Made by a program: the position numbers and the translations under genes. A stretch of 64,000 nucleotides of DNA from an uncultured Acidobacteriaceae bacterium (lineage in GTDB: Bacteria > Acidobacteriota > Terriglobia > Terriglobales > Acidobacteriaceae), in assembly GCA_963711275.1 (NCBI GenBank), contig CAVQDN010000022.1, positions 1,301 through 65,300 of the forward strand, given 5' to 3'. Under the pieces are notes generated by a model, which saw only the letters and a program-made list of their open reading frames with translations, did no database searches and was not told the DNA's origin. Positions 16,688 through 63,722 of this stretch are shown piece after piece. Numbering within the stretch: position 1 is the stretch's first letter; each line of letters opens with the position of its first letter.

Positions 16688-19333
<2,646 letters not shown>

Positions 19334-35175: not shown

Positions 35176-35231
35176 TCTCGACGAAACGCGGTAGAATCAA
35201 TTAGAGTTTGCTGTCATTCCAGGGAGACTCA

Positions 35232-37614
<2,383 letters not shown>

Positions 37615-37670
37615 CCCACCGACGCCATCCTGACAGTCCGGCCAGCCCATCAGATAAGAGTGGAACGCAG

Positions 37671-38861
37671 ATGTCCACATCCAACCAGAGTCAGATTTTT
37701 TTTGAAAACGAGCCGGAATCGCTCCATCGACCGAGCTCAGGCCACGCGGACAACGGGAATCCTTCCCTCGCAGGAAATCAGCAACCTGATCGCTCGCGGA
37801 CACGTAAGCGCGTCGCCTGCAATCGAGCCCGAACATATCCAGCCTGCGAGTCTCGACCTGCGGCTGGGCGACATGGCGCACCGGGTTCGAGCAAGCTTTC
37901 TGCCCGGCCCGAACAGCACGGTCGAAGCGAAAATCAAAGAACTCCGCATGGCGCGCGTCGATCTCACCGCCGCGCCTGTTTTCGAAAAAGATTGCGTCTA
38001 CATAATCCCTCTCGTGGAAGAACTGAATCTGCCGGAAAATATTTCCGGGAAGGCGAATCCCAAGAGCACCACCGGCCGGCTCGACATTTTCACGCGCCTC
38101 ATCACCGACTACGGCACCGAGTTCGACAGCGTCCCGCAGGGATACAAGGGCAAACTCTACGCCGAAGTTGTCTCGCGCACTTTCACCGTCGCGCATTCGC
38201 GCGGGGATGAGACTGAGTCAGTTGCGCTTTGTGCAAGGCAGTCCGCGCTCCGGCGACAGCACGATCAAGGGCTTAGACCATGAGGAGCCTCTGGTCTACA
38301 TGGACGAAAGACACCCCGGCCAAGGCCCAGCTTCAGCGCGGCCTGCGCATCACCGTCAATCTCGAAGCCGCGGAACCAGGTGAGATCATCGCCTACAAGG
38401 CCAAGCGCTATGCTCCCGTGATCGAACTCGACCGGGTTGGTTATTATCCGACGGAAGAGTTCTGGGAAGTTCTTCACCAAAGCGCGAATAAGAGTCTGAT
38501 TCTCGAGCCTGGAGACTTTTATATCCTTGCGTCCCGGGAGCGCGTCCGCGTTCCCCCCGACTTCGCCGCCGAAATGGTTCCCTTCGATCCCGCCGACGGC
38601 GAATTTCGCATTCACTACGCCGGATTCTTCGATCCCGGCTTCGGCTACGGCTCCAGCGAGATCAAAGGCACTCGCGCTGTACTTGAAGTCCGTGCCCACG
38701 AGGTACCGTTCCTGATGGAACACGGGCAACTCGTAGGCCGCCTGAACTACATGCACCTGCTATCGCGCCCAGAAAAGATCTACGGCACGAATATCGGATC
38801 GTCCTACCAGCATCAGGCGCTGACCCTGAGCAAGCAGTTTCGCCGCGAACCCAAGGGCTAA
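37671..38861 (+). pseudogene. dcd: 2'-deoxycytidine 5'-triphosphate deaminase (long DCD family), frame-disrupted
   Basis: TGILPSQEI..IQPASLDLRLG..RVRASFLPG..KANPKSTTGRLDIFTRLI.., then ..RAGMRLSQLRF.., then ..FAAEMVPFDP..GEFRIHYAGFFDPGFG. Shifts at the T8 run 37696-37703 (if ATG 37671 is the start), near 38193 and near 38307. Confidence 0.75.
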
Positions 38862-44606: not shown

Positions 44607-45687
44607 ATGCGTTCGGTCTCGATTGGAGTACTTGTCGTTTGCTGGGCGGCACTTCTTTTTGCGCAGGACTCAGCGGCGCCTCCAATGGATAAGAAGGCGC
44701 AGAAGAGCTATCAGCAGGCACAGGAGCAGTTACAGAAACGCGATCAGCGGTTGGCGCTTTGGTACTTTCGCGATGCCAATAAGCAGGACGGCGGGCATTG
44801 CCTCCCCTGCCAGGAGCAAATGGTGCGGATCGGCCTCGTGATTAAGGACTGGAAAGCGGTCGAGGATGGCGCATCGGGAATGGCCCCGGAGGTACACGAA
44901 CCAAAGCAGCAGGCCGTTGCGCACTACTATCTCGGCCTGGCCTTGCTGAACGAAGGCGGCAACAATCATCAGAACGATTTGCTCACCCACGCTCACGACG
45001 AATTTTCGAAAGCAACTTCCTTGTACTCGCAGTTGGCCGACGTCCTCTTCGAGGACGGGAGAGCGCTGGCACAACTGCACATGGATGACGAGGCTAAGGC
45101 TGAGTTTCAGAAGTATGTTGCGATGACGCCGGAAGGGCAGTTCAGACATCGGCGAGCGCTACAGTTCATCGGCAAACCGGAACTCGCCCGCGCCAATATG
45201 GTTCCGGAGTTTGCGATCGTGACTGCCGACGGCAGGCGCATCTCGCCCAAAGACCTGGCCGGTAAAGTTGCCCTCGTTTATTTTTGGGGATCGTCGTGCG
45301 AAACGTGCATGCGGGCATTCCCGCGCTTGCGCGAGATCACGAAGAAGTTCGAGAACCAACCGTTCGTGCTTCTGAGTGTGAGCATCGATTACAACCCGGC
45401 GGTGTGGCGTTCTTATAGAGAAGAATAATGTCCCCGGGCTGCAGTATATCGACGGCTTCGACGGCCAGCTCGCACAGGCCTTAGGCGTGGAGGTTCATTT
45501 CAACACCAGCGCCGACAATCCGGTCGCAGGAGTCTGGCAGTCCTCCTATGGATTCAAAGAAGATGTTCCCAAAACTTTCACGATTGATGCAGATGGCGTA
45601 CTGCAGATGGACAAAGTGTCAGACTCGCTGGATGCCAGGTTGCAAGAGATGATCGCCCGCGGGGAGCAGAGCGCAGCGAGCCAGTGA
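44607..45687 (+). pseudogene. secreted TPR-like + TlpA/redoxin-like thiol:disulfide oxidoreductase, one frameshift
   Basis: Signal MRSVSIGVLVVCWAALLFA. Helical-repeat N-terminal half. GKVALVYFWGSSCETC (WxxC..C thioredoxin-fold motif). The frame shifts near 45410, then continues ..NNVPGLQYIDGF...PKTFTIDADGVL to TGA 45685-45687. Confidence 0.65.
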
Positions 45688-47007: not shown

Positions 47008-47685
47008 ATGACACTTTCCTCGATGGTGGTTTCGCGCGACTGGCAGGAAGTCAGTGTTCTGGAGTGCATCCTCGGCGGCTTGCAGATGGATGTTGCCGTA
47101 GAAAACGAACCGCAGCGGGCGCTGGCCCGGCTGGCTAAGTCAAAGATCGACGCGCTCATCGTGGACTGCGATCTGAATGGAAGCTCCCAATTCATCCGCG
47201 AAGTGCGCAGCGCGGAAGGACAGCCGGGAGCCATTCCGCTGGTCGTTATGGGGAGCCGGCAATGCAATCAGAATTTGGACGAGACCGGGGCGCTGTTCGC
47301 CTTCGAGAAACCGATTTCCGTGGAACAGGCGGTCCGCACTCTCTCCGCGGCCCGCAACATGATTCTCGACGGACGCCTGCGCTATCACCGCACCGGCCTG
47401 GAAGTGCCGGTATCGGTCAGTTGCAAGGGCCGCAAAGCCATGGGCGCATATCTGGTGAATCTGAGCCAGGGTGGAATGCAGCTTCGGACCAATGATCTCG
47501 TGGCGAACCCGAAGGCGTTGCAAGTGTCGTTCGCGCTGCCGGGCGCGCGGACGGGATTAAAAGCGAAAGCCGAAGTGGCGTGGCAGGACCAGCGCGGCAA
47601 CCTGGGCATCCGCTTCGTAAAACTCGCGCCGCAGCAGCAGCGGACGCTGCAACTCTGGCTGGCGCAGCAATATTTTGCGAACTGA
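47008..47685 (+). CDS. receiver-like domain + PilZ domain protein
   Basis: N-terminal CheY-like fold (..IDALIVDCDL..PLVVMG..) without a clear acidic pocket. C-terminal PilZ with RLRYHR and NLSQGG (near-canonical RxxxR / D/NxSxxG). Confidence 0.7.
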   Translation: MTLSSMVVSRDWQEVSVLECILGGLQMDVAVENEPQRALARLAKSKIDALIVDCDLNGSSQFIREVRSAEGQPGAIPLVVMGSRQCNQNLDETGALFAFEKPISVEQAVRTLSAARNMILDGRLRYHRTGLEVPVSVSCKGRKAMGAYLVNLSQGGMQLRTNDLVANPKALQVSFALPGARTGLKAKAEVAWQDQRGNLGIRFVKLAPQQQRTLQLWLAQQYFAN

Positions 47686-47743: not shown

Positions 47744-48679
47744 TCAGCGAAAACGAGCGTCGTACTCTTCCGTGTCTTGGGCTAGATCCCAGCCAGCCAT
47801 GCGGGCCAGCCGCTCGCCCGGACTCGACTTTCCAAACAACCGAAAAAATCCCCAATACAATCCCGCGACAACGATTGTGGCCGCGCCTGCCGTGGCCAGC
47901 GGCCATCGTGGAAGCTCGCCGGTAATCGAAAGAAAGACCAGCGCAAACAGCAGGAGAGCGGCCACGATTACAAGCGTATTGATGGTCCATACCAGACCGC
48001 GGCCCGACAGCGGCTGAGAAAGCCAGTCTAATACAGTTTCAGTTTCAGTTTCAGTCAACGCCAGCGATTGAAGCGATTGAAGCGACTGAAGCGAACTCCC
48101 GGAGTTGCGCGCGTTGGGCGGCTCCAATGGATCGGGATGCAAGGGCAAGCGAATGGCGCTGACCGGCGCGGCGGAAACCATCAGGCCGTCGGCGACTTCG
48201 GCATCCAGCGTAAACATCGAACCTTCCCGCTCCGAATGCCGCGAAACCTCCTCCAGCAGGTTCCCGAAAATCCATTCATTGATCTGGCGCGCCGCCTTGG
48301 GCGAGAGGTCGAGGAAGCGAATGCCGCACTGTCCGGAGCGCGTCGCCCATGAGACCTCGCCGCGAGCTTCCACGCGCAGCCGCGGATGGCCCAGTTCAAA
48401 GCGCACGCGTAATTGCTGCTGCGGACGCACAGCCGCCACCACCTGCAATCCGAGGCCCTGGTGACTGATGTCGCGAACAATGCCTCCGTTCGCCTGATCG
48501 AGACAGGCGTAGGTCAGCGTCCGGAGTTCGTGCCTGGGATGGGCCCGTCGAGCCTCGGTTTGCGCAGTCTCGGTTTGCGGAGTATCAGTTGGCGAAGTCT
48601 CCATCTCTCGATCCCGGGTCTGTCGCGTAAGGGATAATTCGGTTTCCATACAAAGGCCGCCAAGCCGCCGACTAGCCAA
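47744..48679 (-). CDS. PilZ domain membrane protein
   Basis: RRAHPRH (RxxxR) and DISHQG (DxSxxG). C-terminal two TM helices (VWTINTLVIVAALLLFALVFL, LATAGAATIVVAGLYWGFF). ATG 48649 is an alternative start. Confidence 0.65.
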   Translation of the reverse strand: MASRRLGGLCMETELSLTRQTRDREMETSPTDTPQTETAQTEARRAHPRHELRTLTYACLDQANGGIVRDISHQGLGLQVVAAVRPQQQLRVRFELGHPRLRVEARGEVSWATRSGQCGIRFLDLSPKAARQINEWIFGNLLEEVSRHSEREGSMFTLDAEVADGLMVSAAPVSAIRLPLHPDPLEPPNARNSGSSLQSLQSLQSLALTETETETVLDWLSQPLSGRGLVWTINTLVIVAALLLFALVFLSITGELPRWPLATAGAATIVVAGLYWGFFRLFGKSSPGERLARMAGWDLAQDTEEYDARFR

Positions 48680-48934: not shown

Positions 48935-49918
48935 ATGGCAACCACCACAACCAAGCCGGACTTGGACGTAACTTCTCCGTTTACTGGGGTTAGCGTCTCT
49001 GCCTGGCCGCGAGAGCAGGCCGCTTCCGGCCTCTCCGAGAATCCCGGCGAAGATTCCGCGAAGCCATCGCAACTCGATGCCCTGCATGCCTTGCTGGCGT
49101 TCTCGGCGCTGCATAATCAAGTCCGCCGCCGCAAAGCTCTGGCCGCGCGGAACAATGGTTTCGACGCCGCAGCTCCAACACAAGAGTTTGATAAAGACGA
49201 GCAGTTCGTTCTCGATGAAGTGCTGCGACTGGTCGCCGAGCGTGCGGTCGCTATCACGGGCGCGGACGGCTTGGCCATTGCCCTCGCGGAAAATAATGAA
49301 ATCGTCTTGCGGGCCGCAGCAGGCAAAATCCGCCCCAGCGTCGGCGCGCGCATTGATCGCGATTCCGCATTCACCGGCGCTTGCTTCCGCTCGGCCCAGG
49401 TCGTGAGCTGCGACGACACCGAGATGGACCCTCGGGTAAACCTGCAAGCCTGCCGCCAGCTGGGAGCGCGTTCCATGGTCGCGGTGCCGCTCTGCGGACG
49501 CCGCCGCGTAATTGGTCTGCTGGAAGCTTTCTCCTCGTGGCCCTTCGGCTTCAACGAAAGCGACATTCGCAATTTGACTCTGCTCGCTGAATTGGTATTA
49601 GGAGCGCTTAAGCCGGAGGATGAAGACCGTTTCGCGCAATCGGCGCAGGCAGCGGCCAGCCAGCTGGAATCGCCTGCGCACCTGCGGCAAACGCCTGCCG
49701 CAATCGAAGCGTCACGCGCGCTCACTGAATCGTCAGCCCGGGTTGTTCCCGTGGCTGCCGAAATAGTGGTTCAGAAATCCGTCGAACAAAGCCGCCAAGA
49801 ATGTTACCGGGCAAACTGGGAAGAAAAGTGGCGCCGAGCTGATCGAGGCCAAGGTCGCTTCCGCTCCGGCAGCAGCCACTGTCAACAGATCCGCGACCCG
49901 GCTGTCTCCGAAACTTGA
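48935..49918 (+). CDS. GAF domain protein (probably the N-terminal part of a GAF-TM-AMIN-amidase; see findings)
   Basis: GAF-like core [25 protein letters not shown]...VGARIDRDSAFTGACF...ARSMVAVPLCGRRRVIGLLEAFS. The last 40 or so codons read as Arg/Ser-rich nonsense, while the +1 frame is open and protein-like from 49767. Confidence 0.65.
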   Translation: MATTTTKPDLDVTSPFTGVSVSAWPREQAASGLSENPGEDSAKPSQLDALHALLAFSALHNQVRRRKALAARNNGFDAAAPTQEFDKDEQFVLDEVLRLVAERAVAITGADGLAIALAENNEIVLRAAAGKIRPSVGARIDRDSAFTGACFRSAQVVSCDDTEMDPRVNLQACRQLGARSMVAVPLCGRRRVIGLLEAFSSWPFGFNESDIRNLTLLAELVLGALKPEDEDRFAQSAQAAASQLESPAHLRQTPAAIEASRALTESSARVVPVAAEIVVQKSVEQSRQECYRANWEEKWRRADRGQGRFRSGSSHCQQIRDPAVSET

Positions 49919-50012
49919 TGCGAGAGCCGCGACCGCAACTGCTGCCGCACCAAGAATCACCGCCGCTTCCTCGCAAGCCGAAAAGGGACGGCCCTTCGCT
50001 CTGCTTCTGCTG

Positions 50013-51473
50013 GTGTGCGTCGTGATTGCCGCTGCGTTTGCCGGCGGAGTCTGGTGGAAGTTGAAGACCGTGCAGTTGGGCAGCGCCATGGTTGACGCGG
50101 AAAAACTCGACGAGGAAAACGCCCGCGAAGAGAATATCCAGAACGAAAAAATTGCGGCCAAACCCTTTGGAGAGAGTGCGCAGAACGCTGTTCCACCATC
50201 GCCTGAAGCAAATTCCGCAACCGCCGCGAACTCCAGTTCAGACCTGATTTCCGATTCCAGCCAGCCCACCAATTCGCCTGCAACCGCGCAGGAGTTGTCG
50301 AAGTTTCCGCGAGTCACCGGAATACGGCACTGGTCTTCCGTCGATTCCAGCACCGTGGTTCTCGATCTCGAAGATCAGGTGCAATACGAAGCGCACCGCC
50401 TGGCCGGCCCGGAGCGCATTTATTTCGATTTGCGCGATACCCAACTCGCCAACGACCTGATCGGCAAGGCGATGGATGTGGGCGAGACGCTGGTCAGCCG
50501 GGTCCGCATGGCGCAGCCCGTGGCGGGCATGACGCGCATTGTTCTGGAAACCAAGGCCAACTCAACCTTCTCCGTCAGCCTGGAACCGAATCCGTACCGC
50601 CTCGTCGTGGAAGTGCGCAAGGTGGGCGCGACTCCGAAAGCCGCAGTGAATCTGTTCCCCAACACTCCAGCGGAGAAGAGCAAGCTGGCCATCGTGATTC
50701 CTCCGCCCGGCAAAGAAGATTTGCAGCTGCGGACGCGCGTCCCCAAAATGCGCATCGTGGTCGACGCCGGCCACGGCGGATGGGATCTCGGAACGGTAGG
50801 CCGCCGCGGCTTGCTGGAAAAAGATCTGGTCCTCGAAATCGCGCAACGCCTGGGCAAGCTGCTCGAAAGCCGGCTGGGGATGGAAGTGATCTACACCCGC
50901 CAGGACGACAACTACATTCCTCTCGACGAGCGCGCCAGCATCGCCAACCAGTCGCAGGCCGACTTGTTCGTCTCGGTGCACGCCAACTACAGCGACCTGC
51001 CTTCGGCGCGCGGCGTGGAAACCTACTATACAAATTTCTTTTCGGCGCCGGGGTCGAAAGAGGCTGGTCCAAGAGAAGCCGGCCCAAAAGAAATTGGCTT
51101 TAGAGATGTTGACGCTCGTTCGAACGCCAGCGGCGCCAGGAATCTCGTGACCCCCACGCTTTCGCCCGCCGAACTGCACGACCGCATCGAGCAGTCGCGC
51201 CGGCTGGCGGCCAGTGTGCAGCGGTCGCTTTACGGCACGCTGTCGGTGCAAAATCCCGGCCTGCGCGACCGCGGCATCAAAGAAGCCGGATTCGTCGTGC
51301 TCACCGAAAGCGCGATGCCTGGAATCCTGGCCGAAGTCTCCTTCGTCAGCAGCCCCACCGACGAGCAAAAACTCCGCAGCGACGGCTACCGCGAACAAAT
51401 CGCCGAAGCGCTGTACAAAGGCATCGCGCGCTATGCGGCAAGTTCGCATGCGGTGAAAGTGGCGGCGCGGTAG
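50013..51473 (+). CDS. amiC: N-acetylmuramoyl-L-alanine amidase with TM anchor and AMIN domain
   Basis: TM LLLLVCVVIAAAFAGGVWW. AMIN (VTGIRHWSSVDSSTVVLDL...TRIVLET...YRLVVEV). Amidase_3 (IVVDAGHGGWDLG...DLFVSVHAN...GFVVL..S.MPGILAEVSF.S). The frame is open upstream to 49767 with no ATG/GTG/TTG before 50013. Confidence 0.8.
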   Translation: MCVVIAAAFAGGVWWKLKTVQLGSAMVDAEKLDEENAREENIQNEKIAAKPFGESAQNAVPPSPEANSATAANSSSDLISDSSQPTNSPATAQELSKFPRVTGIRHWSSVDSSTVVLDLEDQVQYEAHRLAGPERIYFDLRDTQLANDLIGKAMDVGETLVSRVRMAQPVAGMTRIVLETKANSTFSVSLEPNPYRLVVEVRKVGATPKAAVNLFPNTPAEKSKLAIVIPPPGKEDLQLRTRVPKMRIVVDAGHGGWDLGTVGRRGLLEKDLVLEIAQRLGKLLESRLGMEVIYTRQDDNYIPLDERASIANQSQADLFVSVHANYSDLPSARGVETYYTNFFSAPGSKEAGPREAGPKEIGFRDVDARSNASGARNLVTPTLSPAELHDRIEQSRRLAASVQRSLYGTLSVQNPGLRDRGIKEAGFVVLTESAMPGILAEVSFVSSPTDEQKLRSDGYREQIAEALYKGIARYAASSHAVKVAAR

Positions 51474-51501
51474 GGCTTTCGGCTTTCGGCTTTCGGCTCT
51501 C
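51474..51501 (+). repeat. period-7 microsatellite (GGCTTTC x3-4)
   Basis: ggctttc ggctttc ggctttc ggctctc fills the entire 26-nt gap between convergent stops (51473 and 51500). Confidence 0.85.
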
Positions 51502-52123
51502 AGCTGTCCGCTGGCTTCTCGCTCGCTACCTCTAGCAACCAATTGCGGGCAAGTGTCTGCACGCTTCTCCGAACCTCGTTCCGCCGGGTCTCATTCATCG
51601 CGTCTGCTTTCGCCCCTTCGATTTTCGCTTCTTGGCCCTCTTCTTCTTCCGCTCCTTCGGCCTCTTCTTCTTCCGGTTCCTCGGCCTCTTCTTCGTCGGA
51701 CGCCGCCTCGTCCTCGGCTTCAAAGTCTTCTTCAAACCACTGCGGACCGCCCAGGCTGGTGCGATGGACGTCGTCGCGGTCGATTACAACGTCCGTGGCG
51801 TCGCGCACTTCGAAGGTCGCATTGCGCAGGTTGACGCTGGCCGTCTGCAGAGCGTAGAGCATGAGTCCGGCGGTCTTGTGGTCCAGGCGCCCGGCGCCGA
51901 GCATCTGGATCACTTTCATCAGCGCCATCTGCACCGAGTTCGCGTCTTCCAGCAGCGGCAACTCGAACAGACGCTGCGCCGACAGATCCGCCGCAATTTT
52001 CGCCTGCTCCCGCCGAATGCGCTCATGAAAAAAGCAATGCCGCCTGCGCCGCAGCGCCGGAGACCCGCACTGCGTCCCATTCATCTTTACATGCTGACAT
52101 CTTGGAACATCTTCCAGCCCCAT
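51500..52123 (-). CDS. hypothetical protein with Cys/His N-terminus and poly-acidic tail
   Basis: CQHVKMNGTQCGSPA..RRRHCFFH (possible zinc knuckle). Tail EDEAASDEEEAEEPEEEEAEGAEEEEGQE. Confidence 0.5.
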   Translation of the reverse strand: MGLEDVPRCQHVKMNGTQCGSPALRRRRHCFFHERIRREQAKIAADLSAQRLFELPLLEDANSVQMALMKVIQMLGAGRLDHKTAGLMLYALQTASVNLRNATFEVRDATDVVIDRDDVHRTSLGGPQWFEEDFEAEDEAASDEEEAEEPEEEEAEGAEEEEGQEAKIEGAKADAMNETRRNEVRRSVQTLARNWLLEVASEKPADS

Positions 52124-52463: not shown

Positions 52464-52688
52464 ATGGAGATTTCATTAGCACCTGAGCTTGAGGCGAGGC
52501 TTGCCCGGATCGCTTCAGAGGCGGGAAAGGCCACAAACCAAGTGGTGCAGGAATTGGTTGCGAGCTACGTGGACCATGACGAATGGTTCAGACGAGAAGT
52601 GCAGAAAGGGCTGGACTCCCTGGACGGCGGCAAGTTTGTGTCGCATGAGGAAGTGGGCCGGCAAATCGAACGCATTCTGAAATCGTAA
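52464..52688 (+). CDS. type II antitoxin (ParD/RelB-like)
   Basis: MEISLAPELEARLARIASEAGKATNQVVQELV..YVDHDEWFRREVQKGL.SLD.G.FVSHEEV. TAATG overlap with the toxin gene. Confidence 0.7.
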   Translation: MEISLAPELEARLARIASEAGKATNQVVQELVASYVDHDEWFRREVQKGLDSLDGGKFVSHEEVGRQIERILKS

Positions 52689-52964
52689 TGATCGTTCGCT
52701 GGTCGCCTGAAGCCGCCGCCGATTTCGCAGCGATTGTCGAATATATCCACAGGCAGAATCTCTCAGCAGCCGAACGCGTAGCGCACAAAATCTACGAAGG
52801 TGTGGCATCGCTGGCATCGTTCCCAAAGCAAGGAACGTCCCGGAAGAATCAAGGGCACCCGTGAATTGGCGTTTTCGCCTCTTCCCTACGTTGCTGTGTA
52901 TCGAGTGAAGGACGAAGTGGTGGAAATTGCGCGGGTGCTGCATGGGGCGCAGCGCTGGCCGTGA
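52688..52964 (+). pseudogene. RelE/ParE-family toxin with a 1-nt frameshift
   Basis: MIVRWSPEAAADFAAIVEYIHRQNLSAAERVAHKIYEGVASLASFPKQG, then after a shift near 52835 RPGRIKGTRELAFSPLPYVAVYRVKDEVVEIARVLHGAQRWP*. Confidence 0.65.
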
Positions 52965-62012: not shown

Positions 62013-63722
62013 CTAGTTGGTGATTGCTGCTGTTTCTGTTCTCTTGCGGCCGGCGCCCGGTTTTTTGGGCGTGTGCTGTTGGAGCCAGAGATCGGCTCGC
62101 TGTTCGATGGCAGCGGCTTGTTCACGGGTCATGCCGGAGGCCAGGACGGCGGCGAGATCTTTGTTCTCCTGGTCGCCGCGAGCTCGCGCTACCACGGTCC
62201 AGAAATAGGCTTGATTCACGTCTTTGGAAACACCGCGTCCGCCCCAATAGAGGAATCCTAACTTGGCCTGGGCCGCGAGACTGCCATGTTCGGCGGCGCG
62301 GCTGAACCAGCGGAAGGCTTGTTTCTCGTCGCGAACGATTCCGTTTTTTTCGTCTCCCTGAAAATAACGAAGGCCCAAAGCATTCTCGGCGACGGGATCG
62401 CCATCCTGCGCCATCTGCCGCATCAGCTCGAACGATCTAGTCTCGAGTTCCGGAGACGTGGTAGAAGGCTCCGCCGGGTAGGACTTAGGGGGTGGAGACG
62501 AGGCCAGAACGGTCGGTATGGGAATTCGCCCACGCTGCTGAAGCTTGCTCTGAATCAAGGGGGCGAGGTTGTAGCCGAGAACCATCGCAATCGCCGCGGC
62601 GACACAAACCAGCAGGATGAGGTGAGACCGGGGCAAGCTGATGCCACCAGACATTTTCTCATCGGCGCTCTCGGCTTTGTGGTCTTGATCGGGCGCGGAA
62701 GCGAACAGCACGCTGCCCGGCGACGGGGAGAATCGGTTGACGGGGGTTGCATCGGCAAGAATCGCGAGATCTTCAGAACGAACAGCGCGATTGACTGCGG
62801 CCATCACGGTCTCGGCGAGACGCTGGAGCACCCTTCCGTCATTCTCAGAAAAGACATGCGCGTGGCTGGAGAAAACCTCGAGAATTCCAATCGATCTCTC
62901 GGCGACTCGGAGGGGAACGGCGACCATGGAGCGAATGCCCAAGGCACGGCAGCTCTCTCGATCCACCCGGGCGTCGAGCTCGGCGTCATCGCAGCGGAGC
63001 AACGTTCCAGTCTTTACGCATTCCCCGGAAAAACCGGATCCCACCTGCAAACGTGCACCGACCGGAGGCGCGTCCGGACCAGAACTGGCGCGACAAACCA
63101 GGAAATCCGGATCGGCGTCCGCCATGGCGATGGCAGCGCCCGAGGCATGAACCAGAGTTTGGGCGCGTTCCACAACTAGTTGCAGAGCCCCGGCAAGATC
63201 GGAACCGAGGGCCTCCACCTGACGTTGCACGGCGGTGACGGCCGCCAGGGTATCGCTGTAGTTAGGACGCGGAGGAATTTCTTCCTGAGCTCTGGCCGGG
63301 GCGGCAAGCTGAGTCTCGCCGTTGGCCACTCCGGCCATCACGTTGACGAAAAGCCATTCCCGCAAACGGGACAGGGCTTCCGAAGAGAGCTCGGAAAAAT
63401 GAAGACCGGCGCGTCCCGAAGCGTTCGACCAGATCACCTGGCCGGTGGTGTAAATATGCTCGGCGCAATCGGCCAGATCCAGGCACAGATTCACGGTCTT
63501 TTCGATTTCGAGAGGAGAATGGCACTGGATGGCGACGCCGTCTTCGCTGATGTCGACGATCTCATGCAGATCGAGCATCGCGCCCTGGGATTCGGCGGTG
63601 AAACTGATGTAGGCGGGCGTCTGGATTTTATGTCGCACACGCCGGCGCCGGTTGGGTGAAACGGGTCGCAGCGCCGAGTTCATGACCGCCATGGGGAAGG
63701 GCCCGAGTTCTGGTTGCTCCAT
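62013..63722 (-). CDS. PilZ-GAF-TM-Sel1 repeat protein
   Basis: N-terminal PilZ (RRRRVRH, DISEDG). GAF (..IRSMVAVPLRVAERSIGILEVFS). TM HLILLVCVAAAIAMVLGY. C-terminal Sel1 repeats (AENALGLRYFQG, AQAKLGFLYWGGRGV). Confidence 0.75.
   Translation of the reverse strand: MEQPELGPFPMAVMNSALRPVSPNRRRRVRHKIQTPAYISFTAESQGAMLDLHEIVDISEDGVAIQCHSPLEIEKTVNLCLDLADCAEHIYTTGQVIWSNASGRAGLHFSELSSEALSRLREWLFVNVMAGVANGETQLAAPARAQEEIPPRPNYSDTLAAVTAVQRQVEALGSDLAGALQLVVERAQTLVHASGAAIAMADADPDFLVCRASSGPDAPPVGARLQVGSGFSGECVKTGTLLRCDDAELDARVDRESCRALGIRSMVAVPLRVAERSIGILEVFSSHAHVFSENDGRVLQRLAETVMAAVNRAVRSEDLAILADATPVNRFSPSPGSVLFASAPDQDHKAESADEKMSGGISLPRSHLILLVCVAAAIAMVLGYNLAPLIQSKLQQRGRIPIPTVLASSPPPKSYPAEPSTTSPELETRSFELMRQMAQDGDPVAENALGLRYFQGDEKNGIVRDEKQAFRWFSRAAEHGSLAAQAKLGFLYWGGRGVSKDVNQAYFWTVVARARGDQENKDLAAVLASGMTREQAAAIEQRADLWLQQHTPKKPGAGRKRTETAAITN

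Follow-up and report, generated by a model that had tools for sequence, protein, structure and literature searches.

Do positions 48935-51473 of this DNA encode two proteins, one with a GAF domain and the other a cell-wall amidase, or one gene that reads as two because of a stray base? The window, by which we mean the whole 64,000-nt stretch analysed here (contig CAVQDN010000022.1 of an uncultured Acidobacteriaceae bacterium), carries at this locus an open reading frame (ORF) for a GAF protein, and overlapping it a second, +1 frame that leads into AMIN and Amidase_3 domains. The initial annotation, made from the letters of the window, had proposed that an indel conceals a polypeptide in which a GAF module is joined through one transmembrane (TM) helix to an N-acetylmuramoyl-L-alanine amidase. 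Here we report with very high confidence that the locus is a single gene and that its frameshift is artefactual, and we describe the protein family to which the gene belongs. The parts of the gene are given below. Residue numbers are those of the closest orthologue, P0001; in the window protein they are lower by 5 past a 15-nt gap (P0001 ~82).

48935-51473, forward strand: GAF-TM-AMIN-Amidase_3 gene, 845 amino acids (aa) after dropping the extra base; as assembled, ORF 48935-49918 plus the open frame 49767-51473
49070-49150, forward strand: conserved N-terminal helix (SQLDALHALLAFSALHNQVRRRKAL), from alignments A2, A3 and A6; helical in both AlphaFold2 (AF2) models
49211-49600, forward strand: predicted cytoplasmic GAF domain of a Cys-bearing subfamily (Pfam, AF2, Foldseek; P0001 ~93-228)
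49667-49997, forward strand: predicted cytoplasmic low-complexity linker rich in Ala/Pro/Lys/Val, which holds the frameshift (P0001 ~249-358; no predicted secondary structure)
49785-49786, forward strand: one-base insertion (extra A in GTCGAACAAAG), from the DNA alignment with locus L001; placeable within ~49782-49790
49998-50057, forward strand: sole TM helix, 20 residues, ALLLLVCVVIAAAFAGGVWW, a putative signal anchor (hydropathy; predicted helix)
50058-50321, forward strand: predicted periplasmic juxtamembrane helix extension, then a low-complexity linker to AMIN (P0001 model: helix to 407, 408-455 unstructured, at low confidence)
50322-50603, forward strand: AMIN, the module that targets AmiC-type amidases to peptidoglycan or the septum (Pfam 5.7e-11; aligns with AmiC 4bin; P0001 464-567, beta-rich, predicted local distance difference test (pLDDT) score ~78)
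50754-51428, forward strand: Amidase_3 catalytic domain (Pfam 1.7e-50; P0001 609-845)
51036-51158, forward strand: Pro/Gly-rich insertion (FFSAPGSKEAGPREAGPKEIGFRDVDARSNASGARNLVTPT) at the position of the AmiA/B/C regulatory domain; no predicted structure, pLDDT ~30

A single extra base between two frames

The ORF at 48935-49918 starts with ATG and encodes 327 aa, of which the final ~43 codons (SRQECYRANWEEKWRRADRGQGRFRSGSSHCQQIRDPAVSET and the stop; also read as SRQECYRANWEEKWRRADRGQGRF...) look non-biological. They have no counterpart in P0001, a single ORF of 850 aa that is 94% identical to the reconstructed fusion and covers 100% of it. Positions 49767 to 51473 are open in the +1 frame, which reads ...KAAKNVTGQTGKKSGAELIEAKVASAPAAATV...AEKGRPFALLLLVCVVIAAAFAGGVWW, where P0001 has RAAENVTGQTGKKNGAEVIEAKVASAPAAAAV; it continues through the linker into the TM helix and on into AMIN and Amidase_3, both recognized by Pfam. 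Its earliest ATG, GTG or TTG is the GTG at 50013, which sits within the hydrophobic helix. The nonsense tail, the open +1 frame and its want of a start codon ahead of the helix had all been read from the sequence in the initial annotation, and all three were borne out.

P0001 is carried on a 912-kb contig, and its locus with flanks (L001) aligned with the window DNA over 5.1 kb at 90.6% identity. Only two indels fell within the gene: an in-frame 15-nt deletion at 49179 and one extra A in the window at 49785/49786 (GTCGA[A]CAAAG in the window, GTCGACAGAG in L001), the latter being the sole indel in the gene with a length that is not a multiple of 3. Homology to P0001 ends in the 0 frame at ...VVQKSV(D) and begins in the +1 frame at KAAKNVTG, which fixes the shift within a few bases. 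Removal of one A at 49786 gave an unbroken 845-aa ORF, just as had been expected of a single indel somewhere within 49767-49915.

The 845-aa product of the artificially joined frames was used as the query of a protein search, which returned 2770 matches at E <= 1e-10. The best 120, which we inspected, were all single proteins of 796-897 aa with GAF, AMIN and Amidase_3 (precomputed Pfam); most of them matched the query over 100% of its length, with identities of 66-94%, and several were named N-acetylmuramoyl-L-alanine amidase, from Candidatus Sulfotelmatobacter. Two separate orthologous genes, the arrangement that would have spoken for a genuine split, were looked for and the opposite was found: the orthologues are single ORFs.

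Break sites and sequencing platform

To read the state of the gene across species, one genome for each GTDB species was scanned, with a 9-sequence GAF alignment as the query. The 80 best loci were nearly all labelled Acidobacteriota, Terriglobia or Sulfotelmatobacter. In 71 the gene was an intact single ORF (798-950 aa), in 1 it was cut by the contig end and in 8 it was broken. All broken copies came from genomes of the Microflora Danica project (MFD), which are products of deep Nanopore sequencing (PMC12313526): 8 of 45 MFD loci were broken, as against 0 of 34 non-MFD loci (Fisher p = 0.009). The other broken copies, like L004 and L005 of that project, have their breaks spread over both linkers (cytoplasmic and periplasmic), over AMIN and over the amidase domain, and several copies carry two or three breaks. 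The portion downstream of the shift is under strong purifying selection, the ratio of nonsynonymous to synonymous substitution rates (Ka/Ks) between the window and L001 being 0.12 downstream of the shift and 0.09 for TM, AMIN and amidase. Because the breaks track the platform and fall at differing sites, other genes of the window are disrupted as well and Ka/Ks is low, the apparent split is almost certainly a one-base insertion error in an error-prone long-read (Nanopore) assembly. Adjacent GAF-only and start-less amidase ORFs in Nanopore metagenome-assembled genomes (MAGs) are, on this evidence, assembly artefacts that should be merged in annotation.

The two other accounts of the extra base fare poorly. 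A frameshift that is real in the organism would make the locus a recent pseudogene, or a split gene with a soluble GAF protein and an amidase started from GTG 50013 or a non-canonical codon, and we regard this as very improbable. The extra base is present in the sequence as given and lies in an AA/AAA context with no long homopolymer, yet the broken species-representative copies all come from Nanopore MAGs, at least five further genes in the window are disrupted, including those for Lon and an aminoacyl-tRNA synthetase, and Ka/Ks past the shift is 0.09-0.12. The many GAF-only ORFs of 226-345 aa held in databases could be taken as stand-alone GAF genes, a variant that we rejected: the inspected cases (L004, L005) proved to be multiply frameshifted copies in assemblies of the same Nanopore project. 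Only short GAF-only proteins came up in a GAF-only search, which apparently favours matches near the query length. A start at GTG 50013 would moreover truncate the TM helix, and no Shine-Dalgarno-like purine run is visible by eye just upstream of it. Programmed +1 ribosomal frameshifting, by which the two frames would be joined during translation, has in its favour solely that the frames overlap for ~150 nt, stop-free in both. It was rejected and deserves virtually no credence, being effectively refuted by intact orthologues: the closest orthologue and 71 of the 80 relatives are single-frame, the junction has neither a 0-frame stop nor a slippery prfB-like context, and the other broken copies break elsewhere, so that a conserved programmed frameshift site is excluded.

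Two different Nanopore MAGs (loci L004/L065 and L054) are broken at the same codon (P0001 ~676, ...IANQ.QADLF...), which hints at a sequence context that is systematically mis-called.

Topology of the reconstructed protein

With the artefact removed, the protein can be described from end to end. Its N terminus is hydrophilic (MATTTTKPDLDV...) and has no N-terminal signal sequence. Residues 1-45 are variable and are followed by the conserved helix at 46-72 (ALQALLAFSALH.QVRRRKAL), to which the models give low to moderate confidence (full-length model, pLDDT ~30-45; GAF model, 58-71). Behind the GAF domain, a conserved acidic tail (232-248, ALKPEDEDRF) passes into the low-complexity linker; the spacing from GAF to TM ranges over 58-269 aa across cluster representatives (of 50%-identity clusters), and both the composition of the linkers and their variability in length are visible directly in the sequences. 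The TM helix begins at residue 355 of the window protein (359 in P0001) and is the only 19-residue window in the 845 aa with a Kyte-Doolittle value above 1.6 (peak 2.78; next best 1.5). On its far side, AMIN and the catalytic domain are joined by a further conserved linker (568-607, PPP.KEDLQLR.RVPK).

This layout points to one orientation. Since a signal sequence is lacking, a folded region of 230-450 residues precedes the single TM helix, and AMIN and Amidase_3 are domains of extracytoplasmic kinds, we strongly infer a bitopic inner-membrane protein, N-in/C-out. The substrate of Amidase_3 is peptidoglycan. AMIN has been found only in proteins that are secreted or lie at the cell surface (PMC2572700). 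That the enzyme is a membrane-anchored periplasmic amidase we hold with high confidence. Of the topology proposed in the initial annotation, the single TM helix was upheld by hydropathy, whereas its orientation drew nothing from the flanking charges, the mean number of Lys and Arg residues over 154 family members being 2.4 N-terminal to the helix and 2.15 C-terminal to it.

Comparison with known amidases

The periplasmic half is AmiC-like. Pfam scored Amidase_3 (PF01520) at 171.9 bits (cutoff 27) over profile positions 1-173 of 174, and AMIN at 42.8 bits (cutoff 20.5). Among PDB matches of the amidase part, AmiC was best (4bin, E 9e-33, residues 464-841), with an alignment that spans AMIN through the catalytic domain, followed by AmiA, AmiB and the unregulated enzymes CwlV, 4rn7 and Nostoc AmiC2. 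In alignment A6 (36 sequences), H618, E633, H687 and E805 are invariant (DAGH618GG, LLE633KD, SVH687AN and AE805VSF), and these His/Glu/His zinc ligands and catalytic Glu line up with the AmiC motifs. Because they are invariant, the enzyme is predicted to be catalytically competent and should be active.

The resemblance ends where AmiA, AmiB and AmiC are regulated. These enzymes have a regulatory domain of ~44 residues, composed of two helices, the blocking helix, which bears a zinc-latching Glu/Gln, and the hydrophobic interaction helix, to which the LytM activator binds; in resting AmiA, D135 ligates zinc (PMC10268282). Opposite the AmiC blocking-helix region, our family has a Pro/Gly-rich insertion of ~41 aa (FFSAPGSKEAGPREAGPKEIG...NLVTPT) without similarity to it. 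Close orthologues differ in this insertion, in part by duplication, and distant clades have a shorter form; it is predicted to be unstructured (pLDDT ~30), in a model too poor to judge docking elements. Two residues past the second zinc His, an invariant Asn (HAN) stands where AmiC has HAD, the Asp position of AmiA D135. The NCBIfam models of AmiC, AmiA and AmiB gave 135, 119 and 89 bits, respectively, against cutoffs of 700, 400 and 532. We file the protein as AmiC-like in architecture and chemistry and as apparently outside the autoinhibited AmiA/B/C group. The blocking-helix latch and the zinc-ligating Asp have apparently been lost, which suggests, as a speculation, that control has shifted away from LytM-type activation.

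The known amidases nearest to the family set off what is new in it. E. coli AmiC and AmiB (PDB 4bin; Bartonella AmiB 3ne8), septal amidases of cell separation, share with it the order AMIN, linker, Amidase_3, the H/E/H ligands plus Glu and an insertion at the position of the regulatory domain, which here is Pro/Gly-rich and unlike a blocking or interaction helix, and Asn replaces the zinc-ligating Asp. In place of the Tat/Sec signal peptide of the E. coli enzymes, the window protein has ~350 putatively cytoplasmic residues and an uncleaved TM anchor. Nostoc AmiC2 (5emi) and unregulated Amidase_3 enzymes of the CwlV type match in two stretches that skip the insertion, and 4rn7, a short Amidase_3 without the insertion, shares the HxN motif with our family. 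The AmiC2 and CwlV-type enzymes are secreted with signal peptides, AmiC2 has two AMIN domains, and none of them is known to have a cytoplasmic sensor. S. aureus LytH (7tj4) and CwlD (7rag) are Amidase_3 enzymes that were also among the PDB matches. An N-terminal TM helix anchors LytH in the membrane; LytH, which works with ActH, and the sporulation enzyme CwlD have a very short cytoplasmic tail, are not known to carry GAF or AMIN, and rely on a separate membrane or lipoprotein activator. The FtsEX-EnvC-AmiA/AmiB system addresses the same problem of coupling a cytoplasmic event to a periplasmic amidase across the inner membrane, and does so with three or four proteins, an ABC-type ATPase driving a periplasmic LytM activator that displaces the blocking helix (PMC10268282). 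In our family, by contrast, a domain of sensor type forms one polypeptide with the amidase, and there is no evident LytM partner or blocking helix.

In full-text literature searches no GAF-amidase fusion was found described, the article in which AMIN architectures were defined makes no mention of GAF (PMC2572700), and databases annotate these proteins simply as amidases. The family is an uncharacterized one, widespread in Acidobacteriota, of AmiC-like amidases with an unprecedented cytoplasmic sensor-type anchor.

The GAF domain

Pfam placed GAF_2, GAF and GAF_3 at residues 93-222 of the ORF, and GAF_2 scored 54.9 bits against a cutoff of 28.6 (PF13185/PF01590). A GAF-only AF2 model reached a mean pLDDT of 84.7, with 88-98 over model residues 51-180, and Foldseek matched it to many GAF structures with probability 1.0 at ~E 1e-9, favouring no GAF type. 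The nearest hits of a PDB profile search were Geobacter 3e0y and the PmGH HD-GYP GAF 4mcw, two entries with no ligand-specific annotation; phosphodiesterase (PDE), phytochrome and fRMsr GAFs followed at similar scores. The domain thus shares the canonical fold with these stand-alone and sensor GAFs and falls in no ligand-defined subgroup of them; it differs from them in being joined through a TM helix to a predicted periplasmic effector, not to a cytoplasmic enzyme or DNA-binding output.

Conservation within the domain is strong. The motifs GxC, CDD, D.RV, aCR and RSxxAVP are kept, the conserved columns of alignment A2 (first row, the window GAF) being P94, G97, C110, C119, D125, R127, V128, C133, S140 and P145, and conservation clusters between the second and fourth model strands, the usual pocket-forming segment. 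The GAF is also the best-conserved cytoplasmic part of the protein, at 78-87% identity over 80 species, compared with 43-65% for a neighbouring PilZ-TM protein. Three to four cysteines (in vCRA, GxC, CDD and aCR) are kept down to 30% identity, the window's clade having Leu in place of the first. They are common to GAF proteins with an amidase, with PilZ and Sel1 and with TonB_C, and three of the four also occur in a soluble form. These cysteines may have a redox, metal or Fe-S function.

Two ligand or activity classes were compared directly. Where the PDE10A GAF has DPRFNREVD, the family has D.RVN..AC in a profile alignment, a comparison that covers this part of the NKFDE-type motif. The JGI label 'putative methionine-R-sulfoxide reductase with GAF domain' suggested fRMsr/MsrC, a candidate that was rejected because the MsrC cysteines are out of register: hhalign of A2 against E. 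coli MsrC gave a probability of 73%, and C84, C94 and C118 align with Pro, Ser and a non-Cys column, ~3 residues off the conserved cysteines.

GAF-TM modules in other proteins

Of the best 148 matches in a HMMER search of 1.84 billion cluster representatives (50% identity), at least 55 were full-length GAF-TM-AMIN-amidase proteins, down to 35% identity; the distant members that carry a name are Terriglobales. A metagenome scan with a second-clade GAF alignment added ~30 GAF-amidase loci. The same GAF subfamily appeared in that scan in other settings, namely PilZ-GAF-TM-Sel1, GAF-TM-TonB_C, GAF-TM with an unknown C-terminal region, and soluble proteins with a weakly zinc-ribbon-like N terminus and GAF. 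A protein profile search with distant members yielded few further members of the family, but it too brought up the TonB_C and zinc-ribbon combinations and added a GAF...WD40 protein. PilZ-GAF-TM-Sel1 is also the architecture of a paralogue in the window:

62013-63722, reverse strand: PilZ-GAF-TM-Sel1 protein (Pfam), its GAF 47% identical to that of the amidase gene over 132 aa

It recurs in metagenome loci L133-L145 and L149. The initial annotation had ascribed to this paralogue the same layout and a recognizably similar TM helix; GAF and TM are indeed laid out alike, and the likeness of the helices is weak, with LLVCV alone in common. Several architectures contain the same GAF subfamily, which makes the GAF-TM unit a cytoplasmic 'handle' that Acidobacteriota reuse for different periplasmic modules. 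A wider proposal, that the Cys-bearing GAF and TM form a phylum-wide 'inside-out' module which places such effectors (septal amidase, Sel1, TonB_C, possibly WD40 and the unknown domain) under one cytoplasmic signal, be it redox or metal through the cysteines or cyclic di-GMP (c-di-GMP) through PilZ, with the amidase as a one-polypeptide alternative to FtsEX-EnvC/NlpD, is at present rather doubtful.

Several members of these groups stand out. Loci L115, L117, L118, L124 and L125 (for example, L115:5908-7653) encode GAF-TM proteins of ~580 aa with a conserved C-terminal region of ~150 aa, putatively periplasmic, which has no Pfam match and reads …FAIYAQ.QGGAPLWQEVQ.VEVDQ.G.F.AQVG.TSAGGFP.FARGLWLGWLVQ.PGEVERRMWLVDT. 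Loci L146-L169 (for example, L156:5692-6540) encode soluble proteins of ~283-350 aa in which a Cys-containing N terminus (CVQCE...C.ACG; weak Zn_ribbon_NOB1) precedes the same GAF, and these are very highly conserved across soil metagenomes. Four SMAG loci (L014, L049, L059 and L079) are labelled Candidatus Binatus, Binatia, Verrucomicrobiia and Eisenbacteria; their GAF is 79-85% identical to that of Acidobacteriota and they have the same PilZ neighbours, and they are probably mis-binned or mislabelled contigs rather than members of other phyla.

Conserved PilZ neighbours

Two PilZ genes lie upstream of the amidase gene in the window:

47008-47685, forward strand: receiver-like plus PilZ protein (Pfam PilZ 4e-14; weak Response_reg)
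47744-48679, reverse strand: PilZ protein with C-terminal hydrophobic, apparently TM, segments, transcribed divergently (Pfam PilZ)

Pfam PilZ scores were 42.7-53.2 bits for these two and the paralogue. Read from the sequence, the RxxxR and (D/N)xSxxG motifs of PilZ c-di-GMP receptors are RRAHPR...DISHQG in 47744-48679, where they are canonical, and RRRRVR...DISEDG in the paralogue; 47008-47685 has NLSQGG with a non-canonical Arg motif (RLRYHR). The PilZ-TM gene was found upstream in 80 of 85 loci and the receiver-PilZ gene in ~74 of 85, and genes farther out and downstream vary among loci. By a local HMM, 70 of 72 loci of the window's clade had a PilZ ORF on the upstream side, no more than 2.5 kb away, and 0 of 67 had one downstream. 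The 35%-identical Terriglobales clade likewise has a Response_reg-PilZ gene upstream.

A third clade (the second GAF-amidase clade, L091-L132) has other neighbours: DUF507 half-genes on both sides, QueG upstream, and BMC and aldehyde-dehydrogenase genes downstream. The upstream DUF507 half, a 103-aa ORF, corresponds to profile positions 88-181 and the downstream half, an ORF of ~92-144 aa, to positions 1-89. PilZ as a universal partner was rejected, as 15 of 15 loci of this clade lack it nearby. For the window's own clade, the conserved neighbourhood and the PilZ-GAF fusion in the paralogue make a PilZ/c-di-GMP link a reasonable hypothesis.

A model for the tethered amidase

We propose that the locus is one gene, broken by an artefact, for a membrane-tethered AmiC-like amidase in which the GAF serves as an input or docking handle; as a whole, this explanation is somewhat better than an even bet. 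The enzyme would insert N-in/C-out and, unlike AMIN-bearing amidases that are released by way of a signal peptide, would remain bound to the inner membrane by a flexible leash of ~50-75 residues, expected to be long enough to reach peptidoglycan. There it would strip peptide stems, AMIN probably directing it to septal peptidoglycan by analogy with AmiC. Inside the cell, the GAF may receive a cue (a ligand, a redox or metal state sensed through the cysteines, or a partner such as the neighbouring PilZ proteins) and so set the localization, clustering, stability, abundance or partner binding of the amidase. If control has indeed moved off LytM-type activation, which is speculation, that would give a cytoplasmic module a reason to exist. 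In the window's clade the adjacent PilZ proteins would be candidate partners that tie the system to c-di-GMP. That the GAF is a handle for deployment rather than part of a rigid allosteric device is our tentative choice, put at a little under evens.

Two other roles for the GAF have to be set beside deployment. In the initial annotation, a small-molecule-sensing GAF was taken as a means to control wall hydrolysis from within the cell. Direct inside-out allostery, in which a ligand on the GAF alters the geometry of a dimer and the change is relayed through the TM helix to switch the periplasmic amidase, would draw on the habit of GAF domains, which commonly dimerize and bind small ligands. Polar and Cys residues of the GAF are strongly kept across clades to 30% identity, the TM and juxtamembrane sequence FAGGVWWKLKT.QLG is highly conserved in the window's clade, and the lack of an obvious AmiA-type blocking helix calls for control of another kind. 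Yet both linkers are long, simple in composition, variable in length and predicted to be unstructured, so that a rigid relay through the 58-269 aa between GAF and TM and through the TM-AMIN linker is implausible; the TM sequence is not conserved between clades (A4 consensus), and no ligand class can be inferred. We consider allostery unlikely. Less likely still is a GAF without a signalling role, as a structural oligomerization or retention module, or an evolutionary remnant, that holds the amidase at the membrane as a multimer. Its joining to unrelated periplasmic domains would fit a generic anchor, and no ligand motif was identified, the cNMP-type (cyclic nucleotide monophosphate) positions differing and the fRMsr cysteines being out of register; but retention needs only a plain TM anchor, and the GAF is better conserved over 80 species than the PilZ-TM neighbour, with invariant D.RV, RS..AVP and Cys positions within the pocket-forming segment.

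Several observations count against the model of a tethered amidase with a GAF handle. The call of an artefact is drawn from assembled sequences, and a genuine, very recent mutation in this strain keeps a small chance, below one in ten. The full-length AF2 model is poor (mean pLDDT 48.5), so that 'disordered linker' and 'no blocking helix' are weak, indicative structural statements. The charges flanking the TM helix favour neither orientation, the positive-inside rule being uninformative here. No ligand class for the GAF emerged from the PDB profile search, from Foldseek or from hhalign against fRMsr, its matches being evenly spread. As to PilZ, the third clade has none nearby (0 of 15 loci), and these genomes have many PilZ genes, three of them in the window alone.

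Amidases that act on peptidoglycan are able to lyse the cell, and their licensing from within it is under active study (FtsEX-EnvC, NlpD, ActS, LytH-ActH). If the GAF gates deployment, a sensor-type domain placed directly on an enzyme that seems to lack the classical latch would be a much simpler solution, in a family that spans dozens to hundreds of species of abundant, poorly studied soil Acidobacteria. The architecture is real and unusual; its regulatory meaning is wholly what we infer.

Other features of the window

The further disrupted genes of the window are as follows.

16688-19276, reverse strand: class-I aminoacyl-tRNA synthetase, interrupted; N-terminal catalytic part 18218-19276, remainder with anticodon-binding domain 16691-18187
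35205-37573, forward strand: Lon protease in three frames (Pfam parts)
37615-38861, forward strand: dCTP deaminase, split between different frames (DCD_N 37615-38283, DCD_C 38277-38861)
44607-45687, forward strand: thioredoxin-like protein, truncated mid-domain (ORF 44607-45428; the open frame goes on at 45382-45687)
52688-52964, forward strand: ParE toxin, split between frames (52688-52864 and 52800-52964)

The pieces of Lon are 35205-36503 (LON_substr_bdg and AAA positions 1-37), 36265-37092 (AAA 43-126 and Lon_lid) and 36947-37573 (Lon_C); its AAA domain is severed between profile positions 37 and 43, and at least two frameshifts, most likely assembly errors, account for the split. An indel error near 38280 is the probable cause in the dCTP deaminase gene. 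The two halves of the synthetase gene are in the same frame by coordinate arithmetic and are parted by in-frame stops at 18215-18217 and 18188-18190, ~27 nt apart, which would suggest two nearby compensating indels.

Rfam found neither a tRNA nor any other family over the whole window, and a 101-nt 'tRNA-Arg(tcg)' reported by ARAGORN at 50308-50408 (reverse strand), opposite the AMIN-coding strand, is most likely a false positive. Downstream of the amidase gene, 51500-52123 (reverse strand) encodes a 207-aa protein that includes a long, acidic run of mainly Glu and Ala and matches nothing in Pfam; it stands beside the amidase in 9 of 85 loci and so is not conserved there. Upstream of the ParE gene, a 74-aa ORF (52464-52688) with no Pfam match may encode the antitoxin.

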